Source of the DNA: Candidatus Latescibacterota bacterium
Lineage (GTDB): Bacteria > Latescibacterota > UBA2968 > UBA8231
Direction: 5' to 3'
Assembly: GCA_965243025.1 (NCBI GenBank)
Contig: CBDETY010000003.1
Location: 4,576,001 to 4,640,000, forward strand
DNA: 64,000 bases
Under the pieces are notes generated by a model, which was given only the letters and a program-made list of their open reading frames with translations, was not told the origin of the DNA and made no database searches. Both the position numbers and the translations under genes were made by a program. Shown in pieces: positions 22,887 through 54,786 of this stretch (positions are counted from its first letter, which is position 1; each line of letters opens with the position of its first letter).

Positions 22887-25800
22887 CTACTTGAGCAGCA
22901 GCATCTTCTTGACGTCGGCGAACTCACCTCCAACCTGGACGCGGTAGAAGTAAATCCCCGACGACATGCTCTGGCCGCGGTCGTTGGTGGCGTCCCACTG
23001 GACTGCGTAGCGGCCGGCAGTCTGGCGCTCGTTGACCAGAGTCCTGACTACCTGCCCCAGCATGTTGTAAACCTCCAGCTTCACGTCACCGGCTTCCGGC
23101 AAGTCGTACTTGAGGGTGGTCTCCGGGTTGAACGGGTTCGGGAAGTTGTTCCGAAGCGCGTACACCTCGGGACGGGTCTGAATCCGAACCGAAACCGGAG
23201 TGTCCAGACTGTTCAAGCCGTAATTGCCGTCTCTCAACTCGCCGCTGAGGATCTCGATGTAGCTGTCCTCGATCTCCCTGAGAGAGCGGAATACGAGGTT
23301 CAACCCGAGATCGCCCTCGGTGCCTACGTCTCCGTAAGCGACGAGCGACACGAGACCGTCCTTGTTGGCAACCACATGACCGTCCGCGAACTCGCCGGTA
23401 CCGAGGATGCTGTTCTCCACCTCGGTGCCTACGTAGGTCAGGAGCTGCGGATCGTAGCTGACGCTCAACCCGTAACCCTTGAGCTCGGCGAAGTCCTGCA
23501 GGCTGACGGCGATGGCCATCTCTTCCCCGACCCTCGGCAACTCGAGGCCGGCGTCGAGGTAGAAGCGGGCGTCGCTGTTCAGACCGGCCATGAAGTTGGG
23601 CAAGCCCTTCCCAACACCCTCGATCTCCCTGCCGAAGAAATCGGCAAAGGTGAAGAAGTCGTTGAGGTCGATCTTGTTGTTCTGACTCAGGTCGAACGCG
23701 GGCTCGAAGGATTCGTCTTCAGCCGTGAGACCGAACTGGTCCGCGAGGATGAAGAAGTCATCGAAGCCCACCTGGTTGTCCGCCCCGAACAGACCGAAGA
23801 CGGCCTTGCCGTTGGAGTCGAAGACACGGTTCCGGATCGCCATCGCGGTCTTCTCCATGATGGTTTCACCGAGGTTGTCCTGGTCGAAGGGGCGGACCTG
23901 GTAGGTGTAACGAATCCCGTTGAAGACCATCTGGTCCTCGAAGGAAGTCGAGCCACCCGGAGCCTCGCCTACGACTTCGTACGCCGCGTCTCCGATCCTG
24001 CGGAACACTTTGTATCCCTTAACACCGGCAGTCGTGTAGATCTGACCGCCGACAGCCTGTCCGACCGAAGTGGTAACCATGTGGTCATCCGGAGACTTCG
24101 CCCAGGAGACCGTTATGCTGCCACCCGCGTCACCCGGGGTATCCAGGACCCTCATGTAAGGAATGGCTCCCGGAGGAATGTTGTCGATCGCCCGAACGGC
24201 TTCCGACCGCACTCTCTCGGACAGGTAAGCGTTGTCTACAGCCTTCATCAAGGGAGCGATCCCCTTGGTGGAGAAGGCAATGGCCTCCGGAGTCAAGGCG
24301 GCGAACAGCGGGCCGTCCGAAACCTTCGGCTGGACGGCAGACTCCTTGCTCATCGCCATCGTCTGAGCCATCACCTCGTAAGGATTGGAGAGGCTCATAC
24401 CGGGCATGAAAGCCTGCTTGCTCGCCGGCACCACATACTCGGCGGCAACCTCGAACGCCGTGGCATCCGAATCGAGAGTCGCTACCACGACCCGCATGAG
24501 ACCCGGATCGGGAACGGCGTCGACGAACGCCCACGGAATGAAAGCCATGGCGTCCTCTGCCTGCACTATGCTGCCGTCTTCCCCGAGGACGTGGGTAACG
24601 GCGATCTCACGATAAATGCGGTACCCGTCGATGATGTCGTGGTTGTCCGACGGGTCGAAGGTCAGGAGGACGAAACCGCCCTGATCACCGTTGCCGAGCG
24701 CACCTCTGAAGTCCTCGGCGATGAGGGTATCAGGAGCATCGATCTCCTCCACCGGCGGTCCGACCGGAGGCCGTCCAGGATCGACAGGATCACCCTCGAC
24801 GTTGATCACACCGGAGACGCCGTGGATGAAAGTGTCACCCTGCTGCACGATGTCTCTGACCGTAACCACCATTGTCGTGAACGATGTAGCCAAACCGGAA
24901 TTGGCGATGAAGCTGCCCGTTCCGTCCCGGATGGGCACGTCACCGGCGGGGACTATCGCGCCGATCTGGTTGGCCGTAACATTCACGAAACGGCTGTCCT
25001 TCTCGCGCACGTTCCCGAACGAGTCGGCGATGCTGACCTCGACAGTGAAGTCCTCACCCCTGGTGACGGGATCCGCCGGGCCTGAAACAATCAGCCTTGC
25101 ATAAGCGTCGTCCTGAATCAGGACCGTGTCCCGAAGCGCTCCAACGATACCTTCCCCCTGCAAGCTGAATACGAGCTTACCGTTCGAAACGGTGTCGCGG
25201 ATGGCCACCTTCCGCGTTCCGTCCGAACCCCAGCCGTCGTCGTCCAGATTGATGACGTTGCCTCCGCCCTCCGGCTGGGAAGCACCGGGGCTGCTCTTCT
25301 CGACCAGGTCGACGCCCTGACCACCCATTACCGTAAGGGTGGCTTCCTCGCGGTACAGGAAGGCCGTCTTGTCGTCCTCCGTCTTAGCCTGAAGGGTTAA
25401 CACCATGACCTTGCCTGCATTGATCATCTGCATCTTGTCGTCATCAAGCTTGTCCTTGTTGTCGTCCTTGAATCCCCTCAGCTTGAACTGGTCGGACTTG
25501 CCATCTTGTTCAGCAATTTCGAGGTCGAAACTGGCGGCAGGTACCAACTCGTGGTCCTCGTCGAAGGTAAAGGTGTCAGGACCGGCCTGCGTCCAGTTTC
25601 CGGCGGCGTCCCGGGCGTCGATTCGGACATAATACATCCTGCCGTCCTCGAGACCGGTCACGCTCAACTCGGTAAAGGTATCCTTCGCCAGGCCATCGCC
25701 TCCGATGGTCAGGGTATCGTTCTTGGATACATCAGCAGACCCAGGACCGAGATGCTTGTAGATAACGGCCAGGGTGTCAGCGTCCTTGTTCAGCTCCACG

Positions 25801-28016: not shown

Positions 28017-28124
28017 CTTTTCCTCCTTATTCAGGAATGATTTCCCTCGACAGAATTCCACGGGCCATCTCCCGATTCCAACCCGAACTCTGCGGTTTGA
28101 AGATACTTGTTTCGGAGCTTTCCA

Positions 28125-40192: not shown

Positions 40193-41865
40193 AAGCGGCA
40201 ATCTCCGACAAGCGCATTGTCTGGCCGGCTTACGGGGCCGTCGTGGTCTTTCTGTCGGCGGTGTACTTCGCCGGCGTCAGGGATTTGGGCCTGGACGTCC
40301 ACGATGCGCAAACCTTCCGGGACAACGCCGCCATCGCGCAGGACTGGGGGTTCTACTTTTCGCCGGAAAAGGAACAACGGACCGGACGGCCGCTGGCCGA
40401 CCTCGTCAAGTATCTCGCCTACGTTGTATGGGGCAACAGCCCTCAAGCCTTTCACCTGCTGGTCGTAGCCGCTCACGCCCTGTCTTCGATCCTTCTGGGC
40501 GTTGTGGCCTGCCTGCTGAACGCCGGACGGTGGACGGCCATGGCGGGCGGGCTGCTGTTTCTCGTAAACGTCTCCCACTTCCAGGCCGTTCACCACATTT
40601 CCGCCCTGGACTATCCCCTGGGCCTGCTGCTGATGTTGTTCGGCCTGTTGTGCTACGAACGCCGGCTTTCGGGCGGGCGGAGCTGGTGGTGGGGAACCTA
40701 CGCCGGAGTGCTGCTGGCACCGCTGGCGCACGCTTCGACGGCGTTTGTCTGGCCCGTTTTCCCGTTGTTCGCCCTTGTGCGCGCCGGCAGGTCCGCGCTG
40801 CGGCCCTTGCTGCCCCTGCTGGGCCTGTTGACCCTGGAGATGGTTCTGTTGGTGGCCTTCATGCCGGAAACCACCAGCACCGGCCGGGCCTTCGACTTGT
40901 TCGCGGCGGGGGACTTTCTCGACCTGATCTCCGGTATCGCTTTTTCCGCCCTATGGCTGTCGGGCAGACTGCTGACAACGGCCCACTGGATCGGAGTTCC
41001 CCTGTACGAACGGGTATTTCTGGACCCATACATCGGGGCGGGGGTCGGCCTGGTGTTGGCAGTCCTGGTCTTCCGAATGAGGGCCCCGGCCAGCATATGG
41101 GCCGCATGGAGCCTTCTGGCCCTGACCCCTTTCCTGCTCATGTCCCACGACCCGGTGCTCAACGACAGGGTGTGGGCCTGTACCCGCTATCTGTACGCTG
41201 CTTCGGCTGGCACTTCCGTGCTGCTTGCCCTCGGGTTGGCCCGGGCGGGAAGATTCCTTGGCCCCTGGGGGCCCTGGTTTCAGGGCGGCGCCACGGCGGC
41301 CCTGTTGGTCAGCAGCTACCTCGCCCTGAAGCAGGCCGAGGGCCTCTCCCTGTTTTCGTCGGGTCGCAACTATGTAGCCCGAGGGGATTATGCCACCGGC
41401 CTTGCCCAATTGAAGCGAGCCATCCACCAGGGGCCGGATGCCATCGACCTGGAGTTCACATACGCCCACGTCTGCTTCCTGACCATTGGCGACCGGGGGC
41501 ATCGGTTCTTCCTGCGGCAGGCCCTCGATGCGTACCCGACCCATCCCCTGCTGAATCTGCTATGGCCGGTAGTCCGCTCGATGGATGCGGATTCCACGAT
41601 CGCGACACCGGCCTGGGACCGGTTGAAGCTGCTGCGGGACAGCTCTCCCGAGACCCGCATACAGCTTACCCCGGGGGTCTGGGTACTGGCGTCGAACGCA
41701 AAAAGCGACGTAGCCGCCGCCTATCACAAAGTGGGCAACGGTTTTCGATCGGAAGGGGATTTCGACAGGGCTGTCCTGGCGTATTCCCGGTCCCTGATGT
41801 TCCGCCCGGACAGGGTTCAAACCAGGCAGGCCCTGGCGGAGCTGAGAGACCGCGGGTCCCCCTGA
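40189..41865 (+). CDS. Polytopic membrane protein with C-terminal TPR (GT-C / TMTC-like)
   Basis: TTG start overlapping the upstream TGA; acidic loop LDVHD after TM1, RPL...AFHL, RYLY motif, C-terminal TPR helices. Confidence 0.7.
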   Translation: MKAAISDKRIVWPAYGAVVVFLSAVYFAGVRDLGLDVHDAQTFRDNAAIAQDWGFYFSPEKEQRTGRPLADLVKYLAYVVWGNSPQAFHLLVVAAHALSSILLGVVACLLNAGRWTAMAGGLLFLVNVSHFQAVHHISALDYPLGLLLMLFGLLCYERRLSGGRSWWWGTYAGVLLAPLAHASTAFVWPVFPLFALVRAGRSALRPLLPLLGLLTLEMVLLVAFMPETTSTGRAFDLFAAGDFLDLISGIAFSALWLSGRLLTTAHWIGVPLYERVFLDPYIGAGVGLVLAVLVFRMRAPASIWAAWSLLALTPFLLMSHDPVLNDRVWACTRYLYAASAGTSVLLALGLARAGRFLGPWGPWFQGGATAALLVSSYLALKQAEGLSLFSSGRNYVARGDYATGLAQLKRAIHQGPDAIDLEFTYAHVCFLTIGDRGHRFFLRQALDAYPTHPLLNLLWPVVRSMDADSTIATPAWDRLKLLRDSSPETRIQLTPGVWVLASNAKSDVAAAYHKVGNGFRSEGDFDRAVLAYSRSLMFRPDRVQTRQALAELRDRGSP

Positions 41866-41959
41866 CGGTTGGATGGACATGTCGGTCGGAGGCCGCGGTA
41901 AATTGAATTCAATCTTAAAAAAGCGGGTCTGAAAAAAGGACCCGGTAAGGACTGCCATC

Positions 41960-43111
41960 TTGTCGGCGCCGGAGACCATCCTCGTCGGATCGCTGCCTCC
42001 CCCTCTCACGGGGCAAACCATCGCATTTCAGATTGCCTGTGAAGGTTTCGAGGAGCGCTGCCTCCCCTGCCGGGTGATCGACCTCAGCGGGGGCGGTCAC
42101 ACAAAACCGGAAGGAGGATTCTCTCTGAGCCGGTCGATGCAGCTCCTAAAACCTTTCCGCCGGGCGTTCGTTCTGTTGTTCGGCAGGAAAGTCCTGTATC
42201 TCAGCGCAACGCAGAACTGGGCGGGGTTTCTCAGGGACGCGGTATTCATCCTCCTGGCATCCCTCGGCAGACAGCGAATAGTCATCCACCTTCAGGGAGG
42301 CAATTACGACGGCTTCCACGACTCCCTGGGACCCTTGCGGAAGTACGCTGTCCGCGCCGTCCTGAGCCGCGTCGACCGAATCCTTGTCCTTGGCAAAAGT
42401 CTGTACGGGATGTTCGATTTCGACCCTTCCCTGCAGCAAAAACTGCGTGTCGTGTTCAATGGCCTGCCCTACCCGGAAACCGAAACCGCCCAGGTACCGA
42501 AGCGTTTGCCCGCGAGGGCGCAGGATCGCCCGAGACTCCTCTATCTCTCCAACCTGATCGTCAGCAAAGGGTACCTGCAGGTGCTCGACGCCCTGCGCAT
42601 CCTCGTGCACCAGCGCGGAATCGATGCCGAATGTCATTTCTGCGGCAGCTTCGTCCTGTCCTCGGACATCCGCCCGTACTCCACCCCCGATGAAGCGGAG
42701 TCGGACTTTCTCGACCGCATCGAAAAATCCGGTCTGACCCGGCATGCCTTCTGGCACGGACCTGTCGATGGAGACGAGAAGCTTCGTTTCCTCCGGGACA
42801 GTCACTTCTTTTTGCTGCCGACCTGCTACGCGTACGAAGCTCAGCCGATATCGATCATCGAAGCTCTTGCTTTCGGGCTGGTCGTTGTCGCGACACCCCA
42901 TCGCACCATACCTGAAATGATGGCGGGAAGCGCGGGAGAGTCGGTTCAGTTCGGCAGACCGGATGAAATCGCAGACGCGGTTGAATCGCATGTAAAAAAC
43001 CCTGGCAAATTCGAAGCCGGGAGCCGGGCTTCCATCGCGCGTTACCGCGGTTCGTTCACGAGGGAACAACACCTCGACAGGCTGGTTCCCCTGATTCTGG
43101 ACAGCGGCTGA
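41960..43111 (+). CDS. Glycosyltransferase family 4
   Basis: YLSNLIVSKG, FLLPT..YEAQPISIIEALAFG (EX7E). Confidence 0.9.
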   Translation: MSAPETILVGSLPPPLTGQTIAFQIACEGFEERCLPCRVIDLSGGGHTKPEGGFSLSRSMQLLKPFRRAFVLLFGRKVLYLSATQNWAGFLRDAVFILLASLGRQRIVIHLQGGNYDGFHDSLGPLRKYAVRAVLSRVDRILVLGKSLYGMFDFDPSLQQKLRVVFNGLPYPETETAQVPKRLPARAQDRPRLLYLSNLIVSKGYLQVLDALRILVHQRGIDAECHFCGSFVLSSDIRPYSTPDEAESDFLDRIEKSGLTRHAFWHGPVDGDEKLRFLRDSHFFLLPTCYAYEAQPISIIEALAFGLVVVATPHRTIPEMMAGSAGESVQFGRPDEIADAVESHVKNPGKFEAGSRASIARYRGSFTREQHLDRLVPLILDSG

Positions 43112-43213
43112 ATCCTTCCTTTACGCTTTATCGACTTTTCGGTTTCCCGGATGCCGCGGGGGTCCTGCGGCCCCGAGATCATCTTTCCGGGGAGACTCCC
43201 ACCGCGACCGAGG

Positions 43214-46078
43214 TCAGTCGAAAGTTTCCCAATAAAGGACGATGTCGGTCAGTCCAAGATCTGCGGGGCCGTCGTAGTGCAGTAGACAGAAGATGTCCTG
43301 GGGCTGGTTCAGAACGAACTTCAATCGGCGGGCGCGCTCCCCGGCAATGGGAATGGACAGAAACCAGGGAGGGTGAACCCCTTCCTGCACAGGACGCAAG
43401 TAGTCGGAGCTTTCCACCGTTGCCCACTTTCCTTGGTCCAATTTTGAACTGAACCACTCCGAATTGAAAGAACCGGAGCTCACTGCTGTCCGGAACGGCA
43501 CAGGGTTGCGCTCAAACAAGGAACGGAATGCGGAAACAGCTGAAACAGTAAGGTTGAAGCGAACTCGGTAATGGCCTTCGGGGAGGTTGGAAAAACGGAC
43601 CGCCGTCTGGAGGGAGCCCTCCTTGATCTCGGGTGCGAAGCGCTTGATCTCGACTGAACTCGGTTCGGTTCCGGATGGCGTGAAGGTGGCTCGGATCCCA
43701 TCAAGCGCCAAATTCCCATGTCCCGAATACTCATAATGGATACGGTTTACTCCAAGCCTGTCGATCGTGAATGGGAACAACTGATTCCCGTCGACCTCGC
43801 CGCCGATGAGTGGATAGCTGGTACGGTTACCCCAGGAAGAGATCGCTGGTAACGTATTTCCAAGAGTAAAGACAATATGACCGGAGACCTGTCCCTCCGG
43901 CGGTTCGACGCGCAGACCTGGGAAAGTCATCTCGTAAAGTCCGGAATGCGCTACCCTTGGAATCCATGAGGAGTTGACTATCCCCGCTGAAGTCACACCG
44001 GGACGGGCTAAAAGGCTGCCGTCAGGTAGAGCTGCCTTTTCCATCGGGTTCAAGGGGATCGAGAAATTCAAGCTCCCCACCCCCGTTCCGGCTTCCGTTC
44101 CCGTTTTTTGAAAATTGGTCGGCGACAAGCTGTGGGGCAGCCTGAGGGCCAGCGTGTCGCTACGGCTCCACAGAAAGGGTGCAAAAGCGGCCGCGGCGAC
44201 CAGTCCCCAGCCGATCAGGCCTGACCTGCCCGTGCCAGGGCCGGCGCGGAATAACAGCGCTGCCAACAACAACGCCCAGAAAGCGATGTCTAGCAGGGGC
44301 AGCTCCACCTGCTCCGGTGGAAAGAAATGTTGATGAAGCGGATAGAAGTGATTGATGGAACGATTCCTCAGATTTATCCCTTCGTATCCGCCCTCGGGCA
44401 CCGGGAGAGTATCGAGCACTCCTTCGACGCTGACGGCGAGGGATAGCGCGACAAAAAAGGCAACCGCCGCCGATCGCTTCACCAGCTTCAAACCCCAGGC
44501 AAGCCCCAAGACCAGAACGGGAAGCGCCGTCACCAGAAAGCGGGCTGGAAAGCAGAAGCCAAAGACCCAGTTCGAATGCAGACCATTGATTACAGCCGTA
44601 GCGGAATAGATACCGACCGCGACGACCACGCGCCGGTCGCGCATTCGCGCGAGAGCCACCAAGCCGAACAGGGCAAAGAAGAAAATTGGCGAACTGTTGA
44701 GAATACCTTTGTTCACATGGAGCAAGTGCCCGGGCAGGGAGATGCTCCAATTGGTGATATCGAGAGCGTCTTCCTCCCAAGCCCCGCTGCCTGGCCTTAT
44801 CGGACCCATCCAATCGCTGCTGAATGCGTAGTGGAACGAAATGAGAGCGTACAGACCAACAGCGACCACCAACCCGACCACCGAAAGGGCGAGATTCCTC
44901 CGGGGGCTGTGCCAGGCCTGCAGCAGGACACCCGCCCCGCAGAGGAGACCTAAAAGGGCAAGGCGGGGGTGAAGGAAGGGAAGGCAGCACAATAGCAGGG
45001 TCAGCAGACCAAGCAGCGGTACCTCGCAGAACCCCCAGGATCGATACGAACCACCCGGTACCTGCCAGTGAGCCAGAGCCACCAAGGCTACCAGGGCGAT
45101 CAGCAAAGCCGGGATTTCGGGAAAGAGTTGGTTGGTGAATAGAAAAAAGGGTGCCGTAATCGCCATGATTCCGGTAGCCAGCAGCGATGCCCAGAACTCG
45201 ACCCCCAATCGTCTCAGGAGAAGAAAGGTCAGAGGAACGCACAGGCTGGCCAGCAACGCCATGAACAGCGCCGTGGCAAGGCGTGGGTTTTTCCATTGCT
45301 CCAAACCCAACCAGTAGGCAGGCACGAGGGCGACGGAGAGCCCGATGGGATGCACGGAGTGCACCTTCCCCTCTGGGGAGGCGGGGGCTTTGTTTACCCC
45401 GAAATGTGAAACATGATATTCGCCGATATTTTCAGCATCGAGGTTGTTGGCCAAGTCCATGTCACCGTCGTGCAGCAGGCTTTGAGTAACGCGCAGGTAC
45501 TGGCCCTCGTCGCCATGCAGCATGGTGACCTGGCAGAAGTAGAGAGTGTAGAGGAAGTACAGCGGCAGGCAGCAGACGAGCAGGGAACCGGCTGTATACC
45601 CCGTTGGAATTCCTTTTTGCCCGTTTGCGGGCGGCAGATGCACGTAACCCAAAAAGACAAGCGCCACTGCCCACAGAGCGTGCGGGGACCAGAGCAGAGT
45701 CAGGAAAGGGAAGACATACACGATCGGATCAAGAAGAGAAACCAGACGCAACGCCAGCAGAACCACAGCAAGCAGGGTAGCGCTACGCAATCGATCCTGG
45801 AGTTGTTGCCCGCGAGAAAGGAAGCGATAGCGCACCCATGACAGAACCAGCCCGGCAATGCCGACAGCAACCGGGCCAATGGGCAACTGCAGACGGTATT
45901 CCCCTGTGGCAACCGCCAGACGCAACTCTTCCGTCGCCGCGGCGATGAGGGGCTCGAATCCACTCAGCGCCAACCATGAGCAGAAGATTCCGATCGCCAG
46001 GCCAAGGTCGATAAAAAACGGCCGCTCCGGGGGGCGAATAACTCGATTGATGAAACGCAGCGGGTCTTTGGCGATCAC
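43214..46078 (-). CDS. Large polytopic membrane protein, GT-C (PMT-like) core plus periplasmic C-terminal domains
   Basis: GDEGQY acidic loop, HSVHPIGLS, FPEIP, PARFLV motifs typical of GT-C membrane glycosyltransferases; lower GC than the flanks. Confidence 0.7.
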   Translation of the reverse strand: MIAKDPLRFINRVIRPPERPFFIDLGLAIGIFCSWLALSGFEPLIAAATEELRLAVATGEYRLQLPIGPVAVGIAGLVLSWVRYRFLSRGQQLQDRLRSATLLAVVLLALRLVSLLDPIVYVFPFLTLLWSPHALWAVALVFLGYVHLPPANGQKGIPTGYTAGSLLVCCLPLYFLYTLYFCQVTMLHGDEGQYLRVTQSLLHDGDMDLANNLDAENIGEYHVSHFGVNKAPASPEGKVHSVHPIGLSVALVPAYWLGLEQWKNPRLATALFMALLASLCVPLTFLLLRRLGVEFWASLLATGIMAITAPFFLFTNQLFPEIPALLIALVALVALAHWQVPGGSYRSWGFCEVPLLGLLTLLLCCLPFLHPRLALLGLLCGAGVLLQAWHSPRRNLALSVVGLVVAVGLYALISFHYAFSSDWMGPIRPGSGAWEEDALDITNWSISLPGHLLHVNKGILNSSPIFFFALFGLVALARMRDRRVVVAVGIYSATAVINGLHSNWVFGFCFPARFLVTALPVLVLGLAWGLKLVKRSAAVAFFVALSLAVSVEGVLDTLPVPEGGYEGINLRNRSINHFYPLHQHFFPPEQVELPLLDIAFWALLLAALLFRAGPGTGRSGLIGWGLVAAAAFAPFLWSRSDTLALRLPHSLSPTNFQKTGTEAGTGVGSLNFSIPLNPMEKAALPDGSLLARPGVTSAGIVNSSWIPRVAHSGLYEMTFPGLRVEPPEGQVSGHIVFTLGNTLPAISSWGNRTSYPLIGGEVDGNQLFPFTIDRLGVNRIHYEYSGHGNLALDGIRATFTPSGTEPSSVEIKRFAPEIKEGSLQTAVRFSNLPEGHYRVRFNLTVSAVSAFRSLFERNPVPFRTAVSSGSFNSEWFSSKLDQGKWATVESSDYLRPVQEGVHPPWFLSIPIAGERARRLKFVLNQPQDIFCLLHYDGPADLGLTDIVLYWETFD

Positions 46079-46236: not shown

Positions 46237-49200
46237 ATGACCATCCTAAAGGAGGGCGAATCGGCGGGAGCCAAGCACGGAAGGCGCGAGACTCCGCCGA
46301 AGAAATCGCTTCCTATGACAAGACGGTCGATCCGGGTGGAAGGTCATCGCCGGGGGCTGAAACGAGTTACCGGTGCCCTGATTGTCATCGGGTTGGTAAT
46401 GGGCCTGCATTTCGGGCCGGTTCCGCCGCTCGAGGGCCGGGCGCACTTGGTGTCCTGGGAAGCGGCCGGGGACGACCCCCTGCTTCAGGGTCGGGTCAGG
46501 TTTCCGTCGGGGCAGCCCGTCGCCGGGGCGCGGGTGATGCTCTTCGACCTGGACGGCCTGCACCGGGTGGCGGCCGCGACAACGGATGAAAGCGGCTGGT
46601 TTTCGCTGACAGCGCAAGCGTCGGCCCCCGCCTTGCCGGAACGGTTTCACCTCGGACAGAACTACCCCAATCCGTTCAATCCTTCCACGGTAATCCCGTA
46701 TGAACTTCCGGCCGCGGCCCGCGTCCGGCTGGAGGTGTTCAATCTTCTCGGGCAGCGGGTTGCGACCCTGGTGGACGAGGAACGCCCGGCAGGATCTCAC
46801 TCGGCGCGGTGGGACGGAACGGATTCGGCGGGGCGCGCCGTGGGAGCGGGGGTGTACCTCTACCGGCTCCAGGGGGGCGGGATGAGCGCTACCCGGCGCA
46901 TGCTGCTGATCGATGGGCAGGCGGGCATCCCTGCTTCCGAAGCGTCCTCCGGGGGCATCCCGGAAGAGGGCAGGGAGGGCGTGGAGGCGGCGGCGCCCGT
47001 CTTCGGCCTGACCGTCTCGGGTGCGGGGCTGATCACCCATGTGAACCCGGCCTTCCGGATCGAGGCAGGCGGGGGAGCGGTCGACCTTGTGGTCGAAAAG
47101 GCCGGGCACCCTCGAGGGAAGGTTGCTGCGAGCGGAATGGCCGGCGACGTGGACAACAACGGCCGGGTCGATGTCGTCGACGCCCTGCTGGTGGCCCTGT
47201 ACATCCTCGACAGCTCCCTGATCCTTCCCAACAACGGCGACATATCCCGCGGGGACGTAAACAGCGACGGCCGCATTGATACCGCCGACTTGTGGCTGAT
47301 CCTCACCAACTACGTGCTGCCGGGGCCGACACCGAGCGGGAAGATGTACTGGACCGCAGAGGGGCCGCCCAGGATTCAACGCGCCGACCTCGACGGGTCC
47401 AACGTCGAAGACCTCGTCACCTCCGGCCTGGTCAATCCGCGGGGACTGGCCCTGGATGCGGCGGGGGGAAAGATGTACTGGCTGGACAGGGGAACCGGCA
47501 AGCTCCAGCGGGCCGACCTCGACGGGTCCAACGTCGAAGACCTCGTCACCACCGGGTTGCAACATCCCCTGAGCCTGGCCCTGGATGCGGCGGCGGGAAA
47601 GGTCTACTGGCTGGACCATCGAACGGCCAGGATCCTGCGGGCCAACCTCGACGGATCCAACGTGGAGTCTCTCGTCTCCACAGGGCGTCAGCCGGAAGGG
47701 CTGGCCCTGGATGCGGCGGGGGGAAAGTTGTACTGGATGACCGTGGGGACGGACAGGATTCATCGGGCCAACCTCGACGGGTCGAATGTCGAAGACCTCG
47801 TCACCACCGGGTTGGACAGCCCATCGGGTCTGGCGCTGGACCTGGCTGCGGGAAAGATGTACTGGACCGACTCCGGCACCGACAGGATCCAGCGGGCAAA
47901 TCTCGACGGGTCCAACGTCGAAGACCTCGTCACCACCGGATTGCGACAACCCGAGGAGCTGGCCCTGGATGTCGGGGCGGGAAAGATGTACTGGGCGGAC
48001 TGGAACACGGGAAAGATTCAACGGGCCAACCTCGACGGATCGAGCGTCGAGGACCTACTCAGTGCCGGACCCGGCGGGCCCTATGGGCTGGCCCTGGAAA
48101 TTCCATCCGCCGATGGACAGGCCGCCGGAACCGCCACCCTGGAGCCGGACCCGTCCACGGTGGTCCTGGAAAACGACGGGAGGTGGCGGGCGTTCTCGGT
48201 CCGGGCGGGCGCGCCGGTCGTCGTTACCGCCAACCCTGCCGGAACCACTCCCCGGGTCGAGATCACCGGCATAGAAGCCGCCTCCAACCAGTGCCCCGCC
48301 GAATCGGAAGAGGAGGTGGAGCGCCACGACGGGGAGACGGTCTACCTGGCCGGGTGCGCCGCGGGCCAGGCCACGGTGAAGCTGCGGCGGGCTGCCGACC
48401 AGACGTTGCTGCGCACCTACACCTTCACGATATCGCAACCTTTACCGGCTTCCACGGTGTCGTCGAAGATGTACTGGACGAGCCCGGGAAAGATTCAACG
48501 CGCGGACCGGGACGGCACCAATGTCGAAGACCTCGTCACCTTTGGTTCTCCGAGGAACCTTGCCCTGGATATGCTGGCCGGCAAGATGTACTGGACCGAC
48601 ACCGGCACACGTAAAATCTGGCGAGCCGACCTCGACGGCTCCCAGGTGGAGAGCCTGATCTCTTCTGGATTGATAAGCCCCGTCGGTCTCGCCCTGGATG
48701 TCGACGCCGGCAAGATCTACTGGACCGACACCGGCTCCAACAGAATCCAGAGGGCCAACCTCGACGGCTCCCAGGTCGAATACCTGGTTTCCCTCGGGTT
48801 GCACAGTCCCGAAGGGCTCGCCCTCGATGCGGACCGGGGCAAGATCTACTGGTCCGACTACGGCACCAATAAAATCCAGCGTGCCAATCTCGACGGCTCC
48901 CAGGTCGAAGAGCTCGTCACCACCGGATTGCGCAGCCCCGAGGGGTTGGCTCTGGATGCAGACGCAGGAAAGATGTACTGGGCGGATTACACCACAGACA
49001 AGATCCAGCGCGCCAATCTCGACGGCTCCCAAGTCGAGGATCTCGTCACCGCCGGATTGAGTATCCCCAGGGATCTCGCCCTGGAGGCCGCCGCCGGCAA
49101 GATCTACTGGACCGATTCCGGCACCGGAAAGATCCAGCGCGCCAACCTCGACGGCTCCCAGGTCGAGGACCTACTGTCTGCCAGCGAGTCGAGCGCCCCC

Positions 49201-50298
49201 CTGGGACTGGCCCTGGCTTCCCCCGTCGCCGCCCTTTCCCCCAACCCGGAGACAACCTTTCCCAGGGACGGCTTCATGCGCCGGTTCACGGTCCTGGCGA
49301 GCGAGCCGGTCGTCGTCGTAGCCAACCCGGCGGGGACCCCTTCGAGGATGCTGGTCGCCGAATCCAGCGGTGCTTTCAACGAGTGCCCGGCGCAACGGGA
49401 AGACAGCCTGAGGCGCAGGCACGGCCAGACGGTGTACCTCGGCGGGTGCACCCCCGGCCAGGCGACGGTCGAGCTGAGACGGGCTTCCGATCAGGCGGTT
49501 CTGAAGACCTACGCCGTCAGGGTATCGGGAAAGTTGAAGATGTACTGGACCAATGCGGGCAGGAACGACAAGATCCAGCGGGCCGACATCGACGGGACCA
49601 ACGTCGAGGATCTGGTCACGACAGGTTTGAGTGAGCCCATCGATCTGGCACTGGATGTGACGGGCGGCAAGATGTACTGGACCGACCAGGGAACGGACAA
49701 AATCCAGCGGGCCGACCTGGACGGAACGGGGGTGGAAGACCTCCTTACGACAGGATTGTTCTATCCCGTTGGTCTGGCACTGGACCTGATTGCAGGAAAG
49801 ATGTACTGGACGGACATGGATGCCGATAAAATCAAACGGGCGAATCTCGACGGTTCCAATGTGGAGGATCTCGTCACCACGGGATTGAGCAGGCCAAGGG
49901 GGATAGCCCTGGATCTGGCGGCCGGAAAAATGTACTGGACGGATCAGGGAACGGACAAAATTCAGCGGGCCGACCTGGACGGCTCAAATATCGAGGATCT
50001 CGTTACCTCCGGGACGAATGATCTCGACAGGCTGGCTCTCGATCCGGAAGCCGGCAAGATCTACTGGACCGACGCCAGGGCTGGCAAGGTCCAGCGCGCC
50101 AACCTGGACGGATCAGATGTGGAAGACCTGGTCACCGGACTGGGAGTGGCAAGGGGAATTGCCCTGGACCTCCCAGGAGGAAGGATGTACTGGACCGACA
50201 GTGGCACAGACCGAATTCAGAGCGCGAACCTGGACGGATCCAACATCCAGACTCCGGTCACCGGAATGGTCGGTCCCACTTCCATCGCGCTGGAATGA
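46237..50298 (+). CDS. Secreted protein: internal FlgD-Ig domain, dockerin, three six-bladed YWTD (LDL-receptor class B) propellers
   Basis: Internal LGQNYPNPFNPST...GVYLYRL; dockerin pair GDVDNNGRVDVVDA / GDVNSDGRIDTAD; 18 YW(T/L/M/A/S) repeats in three groups of six. Start may be ATG 46315. Confidence 0.9.
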   Translation: MTILKEGESAGAKHGRRETPPKKSLPMTRRSIRVEGHRRGLKRVTGALIVIGLVMGLHFGPVPPLEGRAHLVSWEAAGDDPLLQGRVRFPSGQPVAGARVMLFDLDGLHRVAAATTDESGWFSLTAQASAPALPERFHLGQNYPNPFNPSTVIPYELPAAARVRLEVFNLLGQRVATLVDEERPAGSHSARWDGTDSAGRAVGAGVYLYRLQGGGMSATRRMLLIDGQAGIPASEASSGGIPEEGREGVEAAAPVFGLTVSGAGLITHVNPAFRIEAGGGAVDLVVEKAGHPRGKVAASGMAGDVDNNGRVDVVDALLVALYILDSSLILPNNGDISRGDVNSDGRIDTADLWLILTNYVLPGPTPSGKMYWTAEGPPRIQRADLDGSNVEDLVTSGLVNPRGLALDAAGGKMYWLDRGTGKLQRADLDGSNVEDLVTTGLQHPLSLALDAAAGKVYWLDHRTARILRANLDGSNVESLVSTGRQPEGLALDAAGGKLYWMTVGTDRIHRANLDGSNVEDLVTTGLDSPSGLALDLAAGKMYWTDSGTDRIQRANLDGSNVEDLVTTGLRQPEELALDVGAGKMYWADWNTGKIQRANLDGSSVEDLLSAGPGGPYGLALEIPSADGQAAGTATLEPDPSTVVLENDGRWRAFSVRAGAPVVVTANPAGTTPRVEITGIEAASNQCPAESEEEVERHDGETVYLAGCAAGQATVKLRRAADQTLLRTYTFTISQPLPASTVSSKMYWTSPGKIQRADRDGTNVEDLVTFGSPRNLALDMLAGKMYWTDTGTRKIWRADLDGSQVESLISSGLISPVGLALDVDAGKIYWTDTGSNRIQRANLDGSQVEYLVSLGLHSPEGLALDADRGKIYWSDYGTNKIQRANLDGSQVEELVTTGLRSPEGLALDADAGKMYWADYTTDKIQRANLDGSQVEDLVTAGLSIPRDLALEAAAGKIYWTDSGTGKIQRANLDGSQVEDLLSASESSAPLGLALASPVAALSPNPETTFPRDGFMRRFTVLASEPVVVVANPAGTPSRMLVAESSGAFNECPAQREDSLRRRHGQTVYLGGCTPGQATVELRRASDQAVLKTYAVRVSGKLKMYWTNAGRNDKIQRADIDGTNVEDLVTTGLSEPIDLALDVTGGKMYWTDQGTDKIQRADLDGTGVEDLLTTGLFYPVGLALDLIAGKMYWTDMDADKIKRANLDGSNVEDLVTTGLSRPRGIALDLAAGKMYWTDQGTDKIQRADLDGSNIEDLVTSGTNDLDRLALDPEAGKIYWTDARAGKVQRANLDGSDVEDLVTGLGVARGIALDLPGGRMYWTDSGTDRIQSANLDGSNIQTPVTGMVGPTSIALE
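47344..50295 (+). repeat. Intragenic ~129-nt (43-aa) YWTD tandem repeats in three blocks
   Basis: Recurrent AAGATGTACTGG...CAGCGGGCC(A/G)ACCTCGACGG...GTCGAAGACCTCGTCACC; blocks at about 47344-48100, 48469-49215 and 49540-50295. Confidence 0.92.
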
Positions 50299-50385: not shown

Positions 50386-53300
50386 CTATCTGTCCACGGA
50401 AGCCGCAGGGTCCGCTTCTTCCAGCAGGCGTTCCTTCGACCGGCACTTTTCCAGCGCCGCCTCGGCGACGGCGGCCCAGCCCGAGCGGCTGTACTCCTCG
50501 ACCAGCCGCCGGTAGTAGGGCCGCGCCCGCCGGCACCCGGACCGCTTCTCCGTAAGCGCCGCCAGCGAGCCGAGCGCGTCGTCGGCGAGGTCGGAAGCAG
50601 GGTATCCGTCGACAAGCTTTCCGTACAACCCGGCGGCCTCCTCCCAGTCTTCACGGGCTTCCGCCACGCGTCCGAGGTGGAACCAGGCCGGGGCCGTCAC
50701 AGCGCCGTCGGGGCCCTGCCTCAGCATCCGGCGCAGAGGCCACTCGGCTTCCTCGAGGCGGCCTCGCTGCAGGTGATGCCGGGCGATGTTCAGGTGGGCC
50801 TCGGCGCTGCGCTGGTGCCAGTCGAGCAGGAGCACCCGGTGATACAGCTCCTGGGCCCGCTCCTCCTCGAAGTTCCGGTCCGCGGCCTCGGCTTCCCGGT
50901 ACAGCCTTTCCCCTTCCGCCAGGAAGCGTCCCTCCCGGGTCTCGTACTCGACCAGTTCGATGCCGCCCTTCGAGGCGAGAATCAGCTGCAGCGGCAGGTT
51001 CATGCGCGCGATGCCGGCCGGGGTCAGCAGCCCCGACCCGGTCTTGACGTGGGCGGCCCCGACCGGGAAGGCGTTCCACGACGGATCGACGCCGACCCAT
51101 TCTCCGAGGAACACCTCCGGCCATACGTGGAGCACCAGCACCCCGTCCGGAGAGGCGGCGAACCCGGAGGCGACCCGGACCGGCAGCCCGGCCGCCCGGC
51201 AGAGGGCGGCGTAGAGGACGGTGTACTCGCTGCAGGTGCCACGCATGTCCTCCAGCACCTCGAGAGCGGACTTGAAGCGGACGTTGGTGTCGGCGGGGGT
51301 CATGTTGTCGTACACCCACTGCTGCAGGCGGCGCGCCGCGGTCAGGGCGTCCCGCTCGCCGGCGGCGATGCGCGCGCTCAGGGCAGTCAGCTCCGGATGC
51401 CGCGACTGGATGTAGAGGGACGGCTCGAGCCAGGGGCGCAGGGAGTCTCCCTTCACCGGCAGGGCCGTCCTCCCGGAGGGGAGCCCGAGGCGGCGCACGA
51501 CCAGCCGCGTCCCGAGGCTGTCGCTTGCGAGGTGCTGCCTCCGGTTCGCGACGAACAGGGAGCCGGCCTCCGCCGCCGACCACGGCAGGCTCAGCACGAG
51601 CCGCTCCAGGCGGGCGGGGTCCTGTATCTCGTGGTCGAGAGTCAGCACCACCGGTTTTCCCGGCGCTTCCCACGACAGCGCCCTTCCCCTGTCGGTCCGG
51701 GCCCCGGACGATCCGAACCGGGGAACCGCGGTTCTCACCTCGCCGCCCCCGGGGTCGAGCCAGGTGTGGAAGAAGACCCCCGGCAGCAGGTCCGGCGTCT
51801 CCCCCCTGACCGGTGACGGCGCCAGCGGCCCGTAGCGCATGGTAACCTTCAACAGGGAATCCGCCTCCTCCTCCGGCTCCCGTTCCCCAGCGGTGACGTA
51901 CAGGGGGCGGACGGCGAGAGCCGCGTAGTCGAAAACCTCGACAGTGTCGGCGGTCCCGGGCTGCAGCGAGCCCCGGCGGGCGAGCTCCGGGAGGGCGGTC
52001 TCGGGGAGCAGGACCCCCGGACCGGCCTCCACCGTGTCGGTGACCGTCTGCCCGGCGAGCCGCTGCTCGCTGCGCACGCGGCCGTCGCCGAGCCAGTCGC
52101 CGCGGCTGACCAGGCGCTGGCTCCCCTCGGTCTTCTCGTTGCGGAAGGAGACGGGCCGCAGATCCTCGCCGACCTCGAGGGAGGAGCGCACGCGCACGAA
52201 CCCGTGGCTCCAGTTCACGGTCTCCTCGCCGAAACGCAGGCCGCCGCCGGCAAGCACTTGCGACCACCGTTTGGCGTAGCCGGTCTTGAAGCCGCGGCTG
52301 CGCAGCTCGGTCCATACCGTATCGGCGCGGCCGGACCGCGGCGGCTCCACCCGTCTCGAGAAGGCGTACAGGTACCCGTCCGCGGCGGCGACGTACAGGC
52401 GTCCGGCATCGCCGTGCAGGCGAACGGCGCCGCGGCCTGCCCGCTGCTCCCAGGCAAACTCTCCGGTCCGCCGGTCGATTGCGGCCACCGCCCCGGAATC
52501 GTTGGAGACCATCACCTGTCCGGCGCCGGGCAGCGGGACGAGGCCGGTCGGCCTGGCCCCGAGCGGTCTCTTCCAGACCGGGGCGCCGGTCCCGGGGTTC
52601 AGGCTCCAGGCGTAACCGTTGTCCGTCAGGCAGAGGATGGAACCCCGGCCTGCCTGCGGGGGCGCCCGCAGCTTGGCCCCGAGGCGGCGCTCCCACAGCA
52701 GGGCGAGTCCCTCCCTTTCCCAGGCGCGGACGAAACCGTCGGAGGCGGCCGCGACCACCAGGTCTCCCGCCGGGACCGGGGTGCCTGCGGCGGCGCCGAC
52801 CTCGACCTCTCCCAGCCTGCGGCCGCTGCCGCCGTCGACGGCGAGCAGGAAGCCGTCGGCGTTGCCGACGTACAGCCGGCCGGCTTGCAGGAGCGGGCGC
52901 GCCGGCCGGCGGATCCCCGTGCGCAGCTTCCAGGCGAGGGTACCGTCGCCGCGGCGGGCGTAGAGCCAGCCGTCGGAGCTGTTGAAGTAATCGAGGCTGT
53001 CCCCGGCCGCTATACGGGCGCCGCCGGAAGCGGAGCCGTGATGTTTCCAGAGGAGGCTGCCGTCGGCGATCCGGCAGCTGCCCGCGGTCCCCCGGGTGCC
53101 GGCGAACAGCAGCCTGCCGGAGGCCGCCCGCAGGTCGCCGATGAGGCCGGCCCCCGGAAGCCGCCAGCGCACCGCCCCGGAGCCGGCTTCGACCGCCAGC
53201 AGGGAGCCGTCCGCTTCGGCGAGAAAGACCAGGGTGTCCGCCCACGCCACCGGCCCGGCGGGAAACCCGGTCAGCCGCTTCCACTCCAGGGTGTAGGGGA

Positions 53301-53448
53301 AAACGGCGTTGTCCCGGACCGGAGCGGCCGCCAGGGCGGCACAGAGGCAAAGCCACAGGGCAACCGGGAGCGGTTTCGAAATCCGGCAGAGTCCTGCGGA
53401 CCGTGGAAAAGGCCCATCCGGGCTGCGCCGGCAGAGCAACTCTACCAC
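50386..53448 (-). CDS. PQQ-type (BamB-like) beta-propeller + transglutaminase-like domain + TPR fusion
   Basis: Repeated DG.L.A....G...W blades; TGase triad GTCSEY...HVWPEV...GVDPSW; C-terminal TPRs (YPASDLADDAL). Start uncertain (GTG 53448 or TTG 53439). Confidence 0.85.
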   Translation of the reverse strand: MVELLCRRSPDGPFPRSAGLCRISKPLPVALWLCLCAALAAAPVRDNAVFPYTLEWKRLTGFPAGPVAWADTLVFLAEADGSLLAVEAGSGAVRWRLPGAGLIGDLRAASGRLLFAGTRGTAGSCRIADGSLLWKHHGSASGGARIAAGDSLDYFNSSDGWLYARRGDGTLAWKLRTGIRRPARPLLQAGRLYVGNADGFLLAVDGGSGRRLGEVEVGAAAGTPVPAGDLVVAAASDGFVRAWEREGLALLWERRLGAKLRAPPQAGRGSILCLTDNGYAWSLNPGTGAPVWKRPLGARPTGLVPLPGAGQVMVSNDSGAVAAIDRRTGEFAWEQRAGRGAVRLHGDAGRLYVAAADGYLYAFSRRVEPPRSGRADTVWTELRSRGFKTGYAKRWSQVLAGGGLRFGEETVNWSHGFVRVRSSLEVGEDLRPVSFRNEKTEGSQRLVSRGDWLGDGRVRSEQRLAGQTVTDTVEAGPGVLLPETALPELARRGSLQPGTADTVEVFDYAALAVRPLYVTAGEREPEEEADSLLKVTMRYGPLAPSPVRGETPDLLPGVFFHTWLDPGGGEVRTAVPRFGSSGARTDRGRALSWEAPGKPVVLTLDHEIQDPARLERLVLSLPWSAAEAGSLFVANRRQHLASDSLGTRLVVRRLGLPSGRTALPVKGDSLRPWLEPSLYIQSRHPELTALSARIAAGERDALTAARRLQQWVYDNMTPADTNVRFKSALEVLEDMRGTCSEYTVLYAALCRAAGLPVRVASGFAASPDGVLVLHVWPEVFLGEWVGVDPSWNAFPVGAAHVKTGSGLLTPAGIARMNLPLQLILASKGGIELVEYETREGRFLAEGERLYREAEAADRNFEEERAQELYHRVLLLDWHQRSAEAHLNIARHHLQRGRLEEAEWPLRRMLRQGPDGAVTAPAWFHLGRVAEAREDWEEAAGLYGKLVDGYPASDLADDALGSLAALTEKRSGCRRARPYYRRLVEEYSRSGWAAVAEAALEKCRSKERLLEEADPAASVDR

Positions 53449-53525
53449 CGGTTGGCAAGGACAGTGACGGGAACGGGCAGCCGAATCATTGCAATATTCC
53501 AACAGTGTATCCGCCCCTTCCTGCT

Positions 53526-53553
53526 TTGACAAATGACCGGTGCCCTGTATGTT
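53526..53553 (+). promoter_or_regulatory. Candidate sigma70 promoter for the TPR-rdgB-ABC operon
   Basis: TTGACA-N16-TATGTT, about 100 nt before ATG 53650. Confidence 0.5.
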
Positions 53554-53649
53554 CCGCACCTGCACGGGTTGCCCAACCCCGTTCGAAACCTCCTCCCTTT
53601 TCCACCGTTCCCTTTCCATCATTTCAACATCAGGACGACCGCTACTCCC

Positions 53650-54786
53650 ATGTCGAGGACTGCCACCCTCCTGCCGGGCGATCGCATCCGGGCTTTTGTC
53701 CTCCTGGCGGCGCTGACGGCGGCACTGTCGGCCCCGGGGCTGGTTGCGCAGGAACCGGACGACTCCGCCCGCAAACCGGACCCCGCCGCCGTTCAGCACT
53801 ACAGCAAGGGCCTCGAGCTGCTCCAGAACCGCGACTTCCGCAACGCCGCCATCGCCCTGAATCAGGCAGTGAACACCGACTCCACCTACGGAGACGCCCA
53901 CTACGCCCTGGCGAAGACCCAAAAGACCCTCAACCAGTTCGACCGCGCCATCCGCGCTTTCGAGGCCGCCGCCCGCCACGGCGTTTCCTCCGAGCGCGCG
54001 CGCCAGCGCATTCCCGCCCAGCTCGCCGACGTCTACAAGAAGTCGGCGGTGCAGTCGTTCAAGCAGAAGAAGTTCCGCGAGGCGATCGGCAGCTTCGAGA
54101 AGGCGCTGGAGCTGAAGCCCGGCGACGCCGACGTGTTCTACCTTCTCGGCCTCTGCTACAACGCCCTGCGGGAGGACGCGGAAGCGGCCAGGGCGTTTCA
54201 GGATGCCATCGACGCCGACTCCACCTACGTCAAGGCGCTCAAATCGCTCGCCGACCTGCAGCGGCGGCAGGGCAATCTCCGCGCCGCCGCCGGGACCTAC
54301 CGCCGCGCCGTCGCACTCGACCCCGCCTATACCAATGCCTACCTCGGCCTCGCCAAGGTCCAGATCGACAGCGAGGACCTCGACGGGGCCCTGTCCACCC
54401 TGAACAGCGCCGTCGAGGTCGATCCGGAGTTTCTTCAGGGGCTCTGCCTGATCGGTCAGACCTTGAGCCAGAAAGGCCGCTACCACGAAGCGATCGAGTC
54501 GCTGCAGCTGGCCCTCGATGTCAACAGCAAGCACGCCGAGGCCCACTTCCGGCTCGCCGAGGCCTACTACGGGACCGGCGACTGGAAGAAGGCGCTCGAC
54601 GCCGGCCTCGAGGCGACCCGCCTGCAGCGCAACTACCACGCCGCCGAAGTCGTGGTCGCCGACTCCTACAAAAAGCTCGGCCAGGTGCCCGAAGCGCGGA
54701 CCTGGTACAAGAAGGCCATACAGGACAGCCGTTTCAGGGACTGGTGCGAGCAGCAGCTGAAGGAACTGGACCGGCAGCAGCCCTGA
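53650..54786 (+). CDS. Secreted TPR-repeat protein (paralog 1)
   Basis: Signal peptide ending LVA-Q, then about nine TPR units. Confidence 0.9.
   Translation: MSRTATLLPGDRIRAFVLLAALTAALSAPGLVAQEPDDSARKPDPAAVQHYSKGLELLQNRDFRNAAIALNQAVNTDSTYGDAHYALAKTQKTLNQFDRAIRAFEAAARHGVSSERARQRIPAQLADVYKKSAVQSFKQKKFREAIGSFEKALELKPGDADVFYLLGLCYNALREDAEAARAFQDAIDADSTYVKALKSLADLQRRQGNLRAAAGTYRRAVALDPAYTNAYLGLAKVQIDSEDLDGALSTLNSAVEVDPEFLQGLCLIGQTLSQKGRYHEAIESLQLALDVNSKHAEAHFRLAEAYYGTGDWKKALDAGLEATRLQRNYHAAEVVVADSYKKLGQVPEARTWYKKAIQDSRFRDWCEQQLKELDRQQP

Follow-up and report, generated by a model that had tools for sequence, protein, structure and literature searches.

In animal LDLR and LRP receptors, each propeller of six YWTD repeats is followed by a disulfide-bonded EGF module, and LRP4, LRP6 and LRP2 carry several propellers in tandem on one chain. 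Tandem repeats of the same family (Ldl_recept_b, PF00058) were described as "noteworthy" in the sponge-symbiont Poribacteria and were also reported from four free-living bacteria; of the bacterial proteins that carry them, according to the available passages of that paper, "virtually nothing is known" (Kamke 2014, PMC3909097). A high proportion of eukaryote-like repeat proteins was reported for sponge-associated Latescibacterota in the available parts of PMC8163846 and PMC12993501. Here we describe P0001, the 1353-amino-acid (aa) product of an open reading frame (ORF) in a 64,000-nucleotide (nt) stretch of a Candidatus Latescibacterota genome (GenBank assembly GCA_965243025.1, contig CBDETY010000003.1, positions 4,576,001 to 4,640,000 of the forward strand), hereafter the window. 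P0001 is conserved and belongs to a modular family, not described before, that is made up of known parts. Its predicted build is three rigid propellers strung on two disulfide-type Ig-like spacers and hung on a signal sequence, a CarboxypepD_reg-like domain, an Ig domain like the C-terminal domain (CTD) of type IX secretion system (T9SS) cargo, and a dockerin. We think it probable that P0001 is an exported, non-enzymatic, multivalent binding protein on an N-terminal handle, displayed via its dockerin, with propellers that bind most likely a host ligand.

The YWTD repeat of ~43 aa and the six-blade propeller are common to P0001 and the animal proteins LRP4, LRP5/6, LRP2/megalin, LDLR, ApoER2 and nidogen (3v64, 3sob, 8jx8, 1ijq, 5b4x, 1npe). 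Where the receptors have an EGF module, P0001 has an Ig-like sandwich of ~105 aa with one Cys pair. The Pfam scan returned no EGF family among its matches and no Ldl_recept_a (LDL-A) match at E up to 1. The sole hydrophobic segment is N-terminal, and neither a C-terminal membrane anchor nor a cytoplasmic, endocytic tail was seen. LDL-A repeats, EGF modules and a receptor tail were thus all looked for and not found, and P0001 therefore falls outside the LDLR/LRP receptor family. An earlier note, made from the letters of this DNA, had spoken of an "LRP-like architecture"; this holds for the propellers, which match LRP4 and LRP6, and fails in the sense of a receptor. P0001 further departs from the animal propellers in being bacterial, in carrying a dockerin and a T9SS-like domain, and in having blades that are far more alike (62-64% identity).

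With the Poribacteria PF00058 proteins, as the available passages of PMC3909097 present them, P0001 shares tandem repeats, predicted membrane helices or signal peptides, a probable origin in uncultured sponge associates and a proposed cell-surface role, while its phylum label is a different one (Latescibacterota/Gemmatimonadaceae). Those passages contain no 6+6+6 layout, 2-Cys spacer or N-terminal CTD-like handle, and dockerin occurs 0 times in the main text, the supplementary tables not being covered. The features of P0001 are as follows.

46237..50298 (+), whole ORF of P0001, 1353 aa; the second ATG, at 46315, is a possible alternative true start.
46366..46413 (+), hydrophobic segment at aa 44-59, a putative signal peptide or signal anchor found by inspection of the translation.
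46483..46614 (+), CarboxypepD_reg-like beta-sandwich at aa 83-126 (Pfam 30.8 bits, under the 32.3 cut-off).
46663..46905 (+), T9SS type-A sorting-domain-like or FlgD_ig domain at aa 143-223 (TIGR04183 31.9 bits, cut-off 23; FlgD_ig 34.7 bits).
47140..47319 (+), dockerin type I at aa 302-361 (Dockerin_1 34.9 bits, cut-off 22.9; two D-x-N/D-x-D/N-G loops).
47341..48114 (+), YWTD propeller 1 at aa 369-626, six blades, by Pfam and motif scan (model residues 5-257 form 24 strands, pLDDT ~90).
48118..48462 (+), 2-Cys Ig-like spacer 1 at aa 628-742, with Cys686 and Cys707, by motif scan, spacer alignment and model.
48466..49224 (+), YWTD propeller 2 at aa 744-996, six blades, the most conserved propeller, by fold and sequence matches.
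49219..49542 (+), 2-Cys Ig-like spacer 2 at aa 995-1102, with Cys1050 and Cys1071, by motif scan, spacer alignment and model.
49537..50295 (+), YWTD propeller 3 at aa 1101-1353, six blades; the protein finishes with the closing strand of this propeller.

A motif scan for [KR][MLIV]YW found 18 repeat starts with a period of ~43 aa, in three blocks of six (aa 369-583, 744-955 and 1101-1316). Pfam assigned 17 stretches of P0001 to Ldl_recept_b (447 bits against a cut-off of 21; E 2.9e-137), and Tandem Repeats Finder reported 129-nt arrays across all three propeller blocks. The 6+6+6 repeat pattern that the earlier note had seen in the sequence was confirmed. For modelling, the query was aligned with 42 of the 44 homologues that had at least 90% cover (59-91% identity; P0038 and P0046 were left out). 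All 18 Y-W pairs were kept in at least 90% of these 43 rows, and the four Cys residues were invariant. Conservation over the rows was highest in the CTD-like domain (0.86), propeller 2 (0.82) and the dockerin (0.81). ORFs that overlap 46237-50298 in other frames are expected at 65% G+C and were without family support.

An AlphaFold2 (AF2) model of aa 365-1353 had a mean predicted local distance difference test score (pLDDT) of 87.2, with ~90 in the propellers and 62-84 in the spacers. It contained 24 strands per propeller and 8 per spacer; its predicted template modelling score (pTM) of 0.46 makes the relative domain positions unreliable. Foldseek ranked LRP4, LRP2/megalin and LRP6 at the top (E 1e-61 to 1e-37). 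The propeller 2 model was superposed on solved structures with VIA-align, and the animal YWTD propellers matched with Z scores of 35-40 and root mean square deviations (rmsd) of 1.4-1.7 Å over ~250 residues, at 26-34% identity. The individual values were Z 39.8, 1.4 Å over 253 residues and 34% identity for LRP4 (3v64_C); Z 39.1, 1.4 Å over 253 residues and 33% for LRP6 E1 (3sob_B); Z 37.3, 1.6 Å over 253 residues and 28% for nidogen (1npe); and Z 34.9, 1.6 Å over 249 residues and 26% for LDLR (1ijq). ApoER2 belonged to the same group of best matches. NHL domains followed at Z ~29, with 1.7-1.9 Å over 228-231 residues and 20-21% identity. By sequence, propeller 2 likewise matched LRP2, LRP4, LRP6, LDLR and nidogen. 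As modelled, the propellers of P0001 are true YWTD-type six-bladed propellers, in agreement with the earlier proposal that the repeats fold as complete propellers.

Bacterial and designed propellers were also matched. The sensor propeller of the bacterial protein PknD matched propeller 2 in sequence at 87.9 bits, and designer "Pizza" propellers did so at 114-167 bits. PknD (1rwi) and the Pizza designs derived from it are highly symmetric and six-bladed, like P0001 (fold Z 29-33), but they are single propellers of the NHL type with lower Z scores than the LRP propellers. Among the 18 blades of P0001, identity was 64% within a propeller and, between propellers, 64% for blades of the same index and 62% for blades of different index. 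Since identity is nearly the same whether or not the index agrees, the blades of one propeller do not correspond one by one to those of another, and the array has a homogenised look. The G+C content of the gene (0.645) was close to the genome mean (0.654); recent horizontal transfer, considered on composition, was set aside for want of a signal. Elsewhere in the genome, two probable lipoproteins of 322 and 316 aa (L019:913-1878 (+) and L020:939-1886 (+), at ~840 kb and ~2422 kb of G000:C3) combine YWTD repeats with a collagen-like stretch of Gly-X-Y (Pfam Collagen, 30-32 bits), which is unusual for bacteria.

The two spacers of P0001 (~105 aa, 48% identical to each other) contain all four Cys residues of the protein, at 686, 707, 1050 and 1071, two per inter-propeller domain. 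Because the Cys pair was invariant in 10 of 10 copies in the genome and in 43 of 43 family rows, each pair probably forms a disulfide. Modelled alone, the spacer had eight strands, with a pLDDT of 89.1 and a pTM of 0.82. In Pfam there was no match for the window's copies and a weak one to T2SS-T3SS_pil_N for 2 of the 10 genome copies (best E 0.013). A profile search of the PDB gave no match at E up to 10, and Foldseek with the spacer model found none in the PDB at E <= 0.001. VIA-align returned only Ig-like folds of a generic kind, many of them tied at Z 7.0-7.5, a level that is common; an ESM Atlas feature score of 0.76 for a Big_2-type comparison is a lead only. In its model, the spacer is an Ig-like beta-sandwich and not EGF-like, so that the propellers are parted, as the earlier note had it, by a repeated two-Cys domain other than EGF.

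At E <= 0.001, a spacer profile matched 412 cluster representatives out of 1.84 billion. Other proteins contain as many as ten copies of the domain, which there occurs alongside proteases (reprolysin-like, matrixin and subtilase), NHL propellers, cadherin-like domains and CARDB arrays. Since it is present in paralogues with other payloads and together with proteases, NHL and cadherin-like domains, the spacer is a general, presumably extracellular module of the lineage and not a dedicated EGF replacement. A separate 599-aa protein (L016:403-2199 (+); G000:C3:6444231-6446129) has two tandem divergent 2-Cys domains, 29-32% identical to the window's copy, and no cassette handle; ~20 similar proteins of ~590 aa were among the database matches listed.

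The N-terminal part of P0001 is shared with other proteins of the genome. A spacer hidden Markov model (HMM) found the 2-Cys domain in seven other large ORFs, at aa ~326-527 of the open frame in six of them; the seventh (633 aa) has two copies, at aa 95-302. Pfam scans gave the paralogues a common order of signal peptide, CarboxypepD_reg-like domain, FlgD_ig/CTD-like domain, dockerin, 2-Cys domain and variable payload. The CarboxypepD_reg-like match, sub-threshold in P0001, was similarly weak in these proteins. Payloads were two YWTD propellers with CARDB arrays, CARDB alone, long leucine-rich repeat (LRR) arrays, LRR with an M66-like peptidase, and DUF3472. Database representatives from other genomes also have this cassette, there followed by LRR or CARDB. 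In the triple-propeller subfamily, the dockerin is followed by a propeller before any 2-Cys domain, and propeller and spacer then recur as a unit. The earlier note had remarked neither on the CarboxypepD_reg-like and T9SS-CTD-like/FlgD_ig domains (aa 83-223) nor on the spacer in seven other large proteins of the genome. These arrangements suggest that the lineage may use the N-terminal handle for many payloads and that symbionts may swap binding modules on a common display device.

T9SS sorting domains are normally C-terminal and are not known to act from elsewhere in a protein. A family-HMM search of the genome found 168 T9SS-sorting-like domains, and 154 of the 168 lay no more than 25 aa from the stop codon. 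Nine were near the N-terminus of large proteins, namely P0001 and eight paralogues, at aa ~85-265 with more than 600 residues downstream. Like T9SS type A cargo (TIGR04183/PF18962), P0001 has a domain that passes the NCBIfam cut-off, in a genome with ~154 C-terminal cases and a match to the SprA translocon protein (107.8 bits). Unlike such cargo, P0001 has it at aa 143-223 of 1353 and not at the extreme C-terminus. Given this N-terminal place and the more than 600 residues that follow, the domain is not a canonical C-terminal signal. A search for PorP/SprF (PF11751) gave no match in the genome and none in the control genomes either and is uninformative. As for the rest of the N-terminus, the family consensus in the 43-row alignment resembles a classical signal peptide; in P0001 itself the putative signal segment was assigned by reading the translation. 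Homologues align from about aa 72-83 of P0001 onward and cover 94-97%.

Two further observations concern the cassette genes. At G000:C3:1011856-1022845 (-) (L014), two of them adjoin (1402 and 2152 aa) and have long LRR arrays, the larger with an M66-like peptidase match. Between ~0.82 and 1.04 Mb of G000:C3 there were many T9SS-sorting-domain matches and five cassette genes, starting at 825, 895, 909, 1012 and 1016 kb, which suggests that this region may be a surface-protein island.

Dockerin calcium loops follow the consensus D-x-N/D-x-D/N-G-x-x-D. The dockerin of P0001, already recognised in the earlier note, matched PF00404 over profile positions 1-57 of 57. There were 10 dockerin matches in the genome, at least 8 of them in cassette-family proteins. 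As in non-cellulosomal cohesin-dockerin systems and cellulosomal type I dockerins (PF00404/PF00963), the duplicated calcium-loop dockerin of P0001 is on a secreted protein that is not a glycoside hydrolase, and the genome encodes other surface proteins that have cohesin-like modules and a C-terminal T9SS sorting domain. P0001 differs from those systems in that its dockerin is near the N-terminus, upstream of the payload, and in that the cohesin matches are weak. These reached 24.8, 19.8 and 19.8 bits (PF00963 cut-off 24.1), so that one was above the cut-off, and all were in proteins with a C-terminal T9SS sorting domain. The 24.8-bit match was in a 918-aa open frame at G000:C3:2369125-2371878, with a dockerin-like segment and a C-terminal sorting domain. 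One of the 19.8-bit matches is in the window:

23172..23570 (-), candidate docking partner, a cohesin-like module at aa ~1498-1630 of the 1724-aa ORF 22887-28061 (-) (PF00963 19.8 bits, sub-threshold).

This ORF, a T9SS cargo protein, has a dockerin-like pair at aa ~1420-1482, then the cohesin-like module (~1498-1630) and a sorting domain (1638-1724). The other 19.8-bit match was in a 96%-identical paralogue (5.2 kb; G000:C3:6020337-6025601) with the same C-terminal order. In the best 120 of 1539 matches, the C-terminal region of ORF 22887-28061 was 60-99% identical, and some of the matched proteins had precomputed PF00963 assignments. A complex prediction for the P0001 dockerin (aa 296-366) and the cohesin-like module (aa 1490-1636), each supplied with an alignment, scored 0.02 against a mark of 0.32, which speaks neither for nor against binding.

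A homologue search with P0001 gave 4485 proteins at E <= 0.001 among 8000 candidates scored. Query cover was at least 90% in 47 of the 120 homologues listed, and the 6+6+6 layout was kept in at least 44 database clusters. Named homologues were metagenome-assembled genome (MAG) proteins labelled Gemmatimonadaceae, with the titles "T9SS type A sorting domain-containing" or "DUF5050 domain-containing." The spacer was also located by a pattern scan over species genomes, at nine loci in three named MAGs (two labelled Candidatus Latescibacterota, one Gemmatimonadaceae). Four genes, in two of these three MAGs, had exactly 18 repeats and 2 spacers and were 61-64% identical to P0001 over ~1290 aa. Among the 168 species genomes of the window's phylum, the spacer was present in 30, and the window's own family, with 76 genomes, accounted for 26 of these; PF00058 was found in 70 of the 168, against 0 of 14 control genomes. 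In one named Latescibacterota MAG, two 6+6+6 genes (open frames of 1367 and 1311 aa) form a tandem pair (L025:741-8808 (+)), and the family has therefore duplicated locally in some genomes.

The gene, or part of it, was present in 20 sequencing runs from 12 studies; the label was sponge metagenome for four runs, including one metatranscriptome, and marine metagenome for two. Four of the 22 listed runs were aligned to the gene; parts left uncovered in such alignments (for example 46237-46644 in run X14) do not signify absence. A sponge-metagenome DNA run contained a 450-nt contig that aligned for 447 nt over 48058-48504 with 14 differences, and the sponge metatranscriptome run a 574-nt contig over 48107-48680 with 30 differences. 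The sponge-labelled relatives were thus ~95-97% identical in DNA over the family-specific spacer region. Eight listed pieces from run X5 were identical to the window. Close relatives of the gene occur in sponge-labelled samples. The source bacterium is probably sponge-associated, on the labels of a few runs whose relatives are 95-97% identical in DNA.

Several features point to the binding role proposed for P0001. The invariant Cys pair in each spacer, the dockerin and the signal-peptide-like consensus are signs of an extracellular protein. Blades that are 62-64% identical whatever their position, together with the absence of any lactonase, SGL or PON protein among the 50 listed VIA-align rows, are signs of a non-enzymatic one. 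Export would be by Sec; P0001 would then be displayed outside the cell, its dockerin plugged into cohesin modules that the cell carries on T9SS-sorted proteins of its own surface. Each propeller would bind a protein or glycan ligand, most likely of sponge host origin; through such binding, the bacterium would adhere to host material or be recognised by it. Given that paralogues carry LRR arrays and that some samples are sponge-labelled, we favour host-derived macromolecules as ligands. Host binding or mimicry by P0001 is plausible.

Other observations weigh against a displayed protein that binds the host. As to the route across the outer membrane, the T9SS-like domain lies near the N-terminus, whereas 154 of the 168 in the genome are C-terminal. 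The N-terminus of P0001 is longer than that of the family and atypical, with an uncertain start codon, and the cohesin candidates (24.8, 19.8 and 19.8 bits against 24.1) are weak. Three enzyme families passed their Pfam cut-offs on P0001, namely Vgb_lyase (135.6 bits), SGL (113.3 bits) and Phytase-like. The evidence on habitat consists of the labels of a few runs, two of them marine metagenome. Tandem PF00058 repeats occur in 70 of the 168 phylum genomes and, according to the available passages of PMC3909097, also in free-living bacteria. Finally, an RNA library may contain DNA, so the metatranscriptome contig does not prove transcription.

The alternative that fares best, though we rate it well below host binding, is that P0001 belongs to a surface assembly of cohesins and dockerins put to the bacterium's own use, in capture of dissolved organic matter or glycans, in cell-cell cohesion or as an envelope coat, with the host not a target. 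Dockerins and cohesin-like modules co-occur in the genome with ~154 C-terminal T9SS cargo proteins, the 2-Cys domain is found with reprolysin-like, matrixin and subtilase proteases and with CARDB arrays, and the giant cohesin-bearing protein is ~60% identical in many MAGs and metagenomes from several sources, all of which would suit an assembly of this kind. However, the propellers show no feature suggestive of glycan binding, the YWTD and LRR payloads are repeat classes discussed for host interaction, and close relatives were found in runs labelled sponge metagenome.

Strict receptor mimicry is unlikely. Here the propellers would copy the ligand faces of LRP4/5/6-, LDLR- or nidogen-type propellers, capture host ligands and modulate signalling, matrix assembly or phagocytosis. 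It would account for animal YWTD propellers being the best structural and sequence matches (26-34% identity), for the blade-specific loop residues of propeller 2 that were kept across 43 family members, and for the presence of another eukaryote-like repeat, LRR arrays, on paralogues; single eukaryote-like proteins were also reported, in the available parts of PMC13747020, to alter sponge-bacterium interactions. Yet the Pfam scan found no LDL-A or EGF modules in P0001, and the homogenised blades (62-64%) look like a generic repeat scaffold and not like a copy of one host propeller. The G+C of the gene (0.645, genome ~0.654) gave no compositional sign of recent transfer, and the bacterial PknD propeller matched as well, at 87.9 bits. 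A more specific and slightly less likely proposal makes the cassette a new surface-display handle of sponge-associated Latescibacterota-like bacteria and the triple-YWTD payload a decoy of host LRP4/5/6 or nidogen propellers that captures their ligands. If it were true, the decoy would steer recognition or uptake by sponge cells, and the cassette would amount to a "plug-in" system by which bacteria mount eukaryote-like binding modules.

An enzymatic role, as a SMP-30/gluconolactonase, a streptogramin B lyase or a phytase-like protein, has Pfam matches above the cut-offs behind it (Vgb_lyase, E 2e-39; SGL, E 1.9e-32; Phytase-like, E 1e-12) and weak NCBIfam matches to Vgb and ScyF far under theirs, but it was rejected as the best explanation and is very improbable given the far stronger Ldl_recept_b score (447 bits, with the NCBIfam enzyme models at 55 bits against a cut-off of 600), the fold matches (50 of the 50 listed were YWTD, NHL or "Pizza" and none SGL, PON or Vgb) and the uniformity of the blades, which being near-identical leave no unique active-site blade.

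Literature searches found no description of the architecture of P0001, although supplementary tables may list the Pfam family. The main texts of PMC8163846 and PMC12993501 mention neither dockerin nor LDL. No statement of a statistical enrichment of PF00058 in sponge symbionts was found, supplementary tables not being covered, and the searches returned nothing that joined Gemmatimonadota with sponge and dockerin, Ldl_recept_b with sponge, or "low-density lipoprotein receptor repeat" with sponge and bacteria. Among papers found for sponge, dockerin, cohesin and symbiont, none was about sponge symbionts as judged by title and the start of the abstract, and YWTD in PMC4772301 refers to host sponge proteins.

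The family of P0001 offers a well-defined bacterial YWTD case, with three confidently modelled propellers, a rigidly conserved layout, a tether module, separable domains and close relatives in sponge-labelled runs. Through the shared cassette, the long-standing question of which ligands the eukaryote-like proteins of sponge symbionts bind can be put directly to pull-down and docking experiments. Of the leads, the most useful to follow are the display cassette itself, the T9SS-type domain at the N-terminus and a bacterial YWTD propeller amenable to experiment. Both the 2-Cys Ig-like domain, with its 412 cluster representatives and no Pfam model, and the N-terminal T9SS-type domain merit description as families.

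A promoter and terminator scan around the gene gave no promoter-like site and a single internal terminator-like site, against 3.6 expected by chance, and was uninformative. Convergent with the YWTD gene, at 50386-54639 (-) of the window, lies a gene for a 1417-aa protein with a PQQ_2/BamB-like propeller, a transglutaminase-like core and TPR repeats. Upstream, a glycosylation cluster at 39014-46078 encodes two GT4/GT1 glycosyltransferases, a TPR protein and a 954-aa PMT-like transferase of the dolichyl-phosphate-mannose type, the last on the opposite strand to the rest. The G+C content of this cluster is 0.58-0.59, below the genome mean of 0.654.

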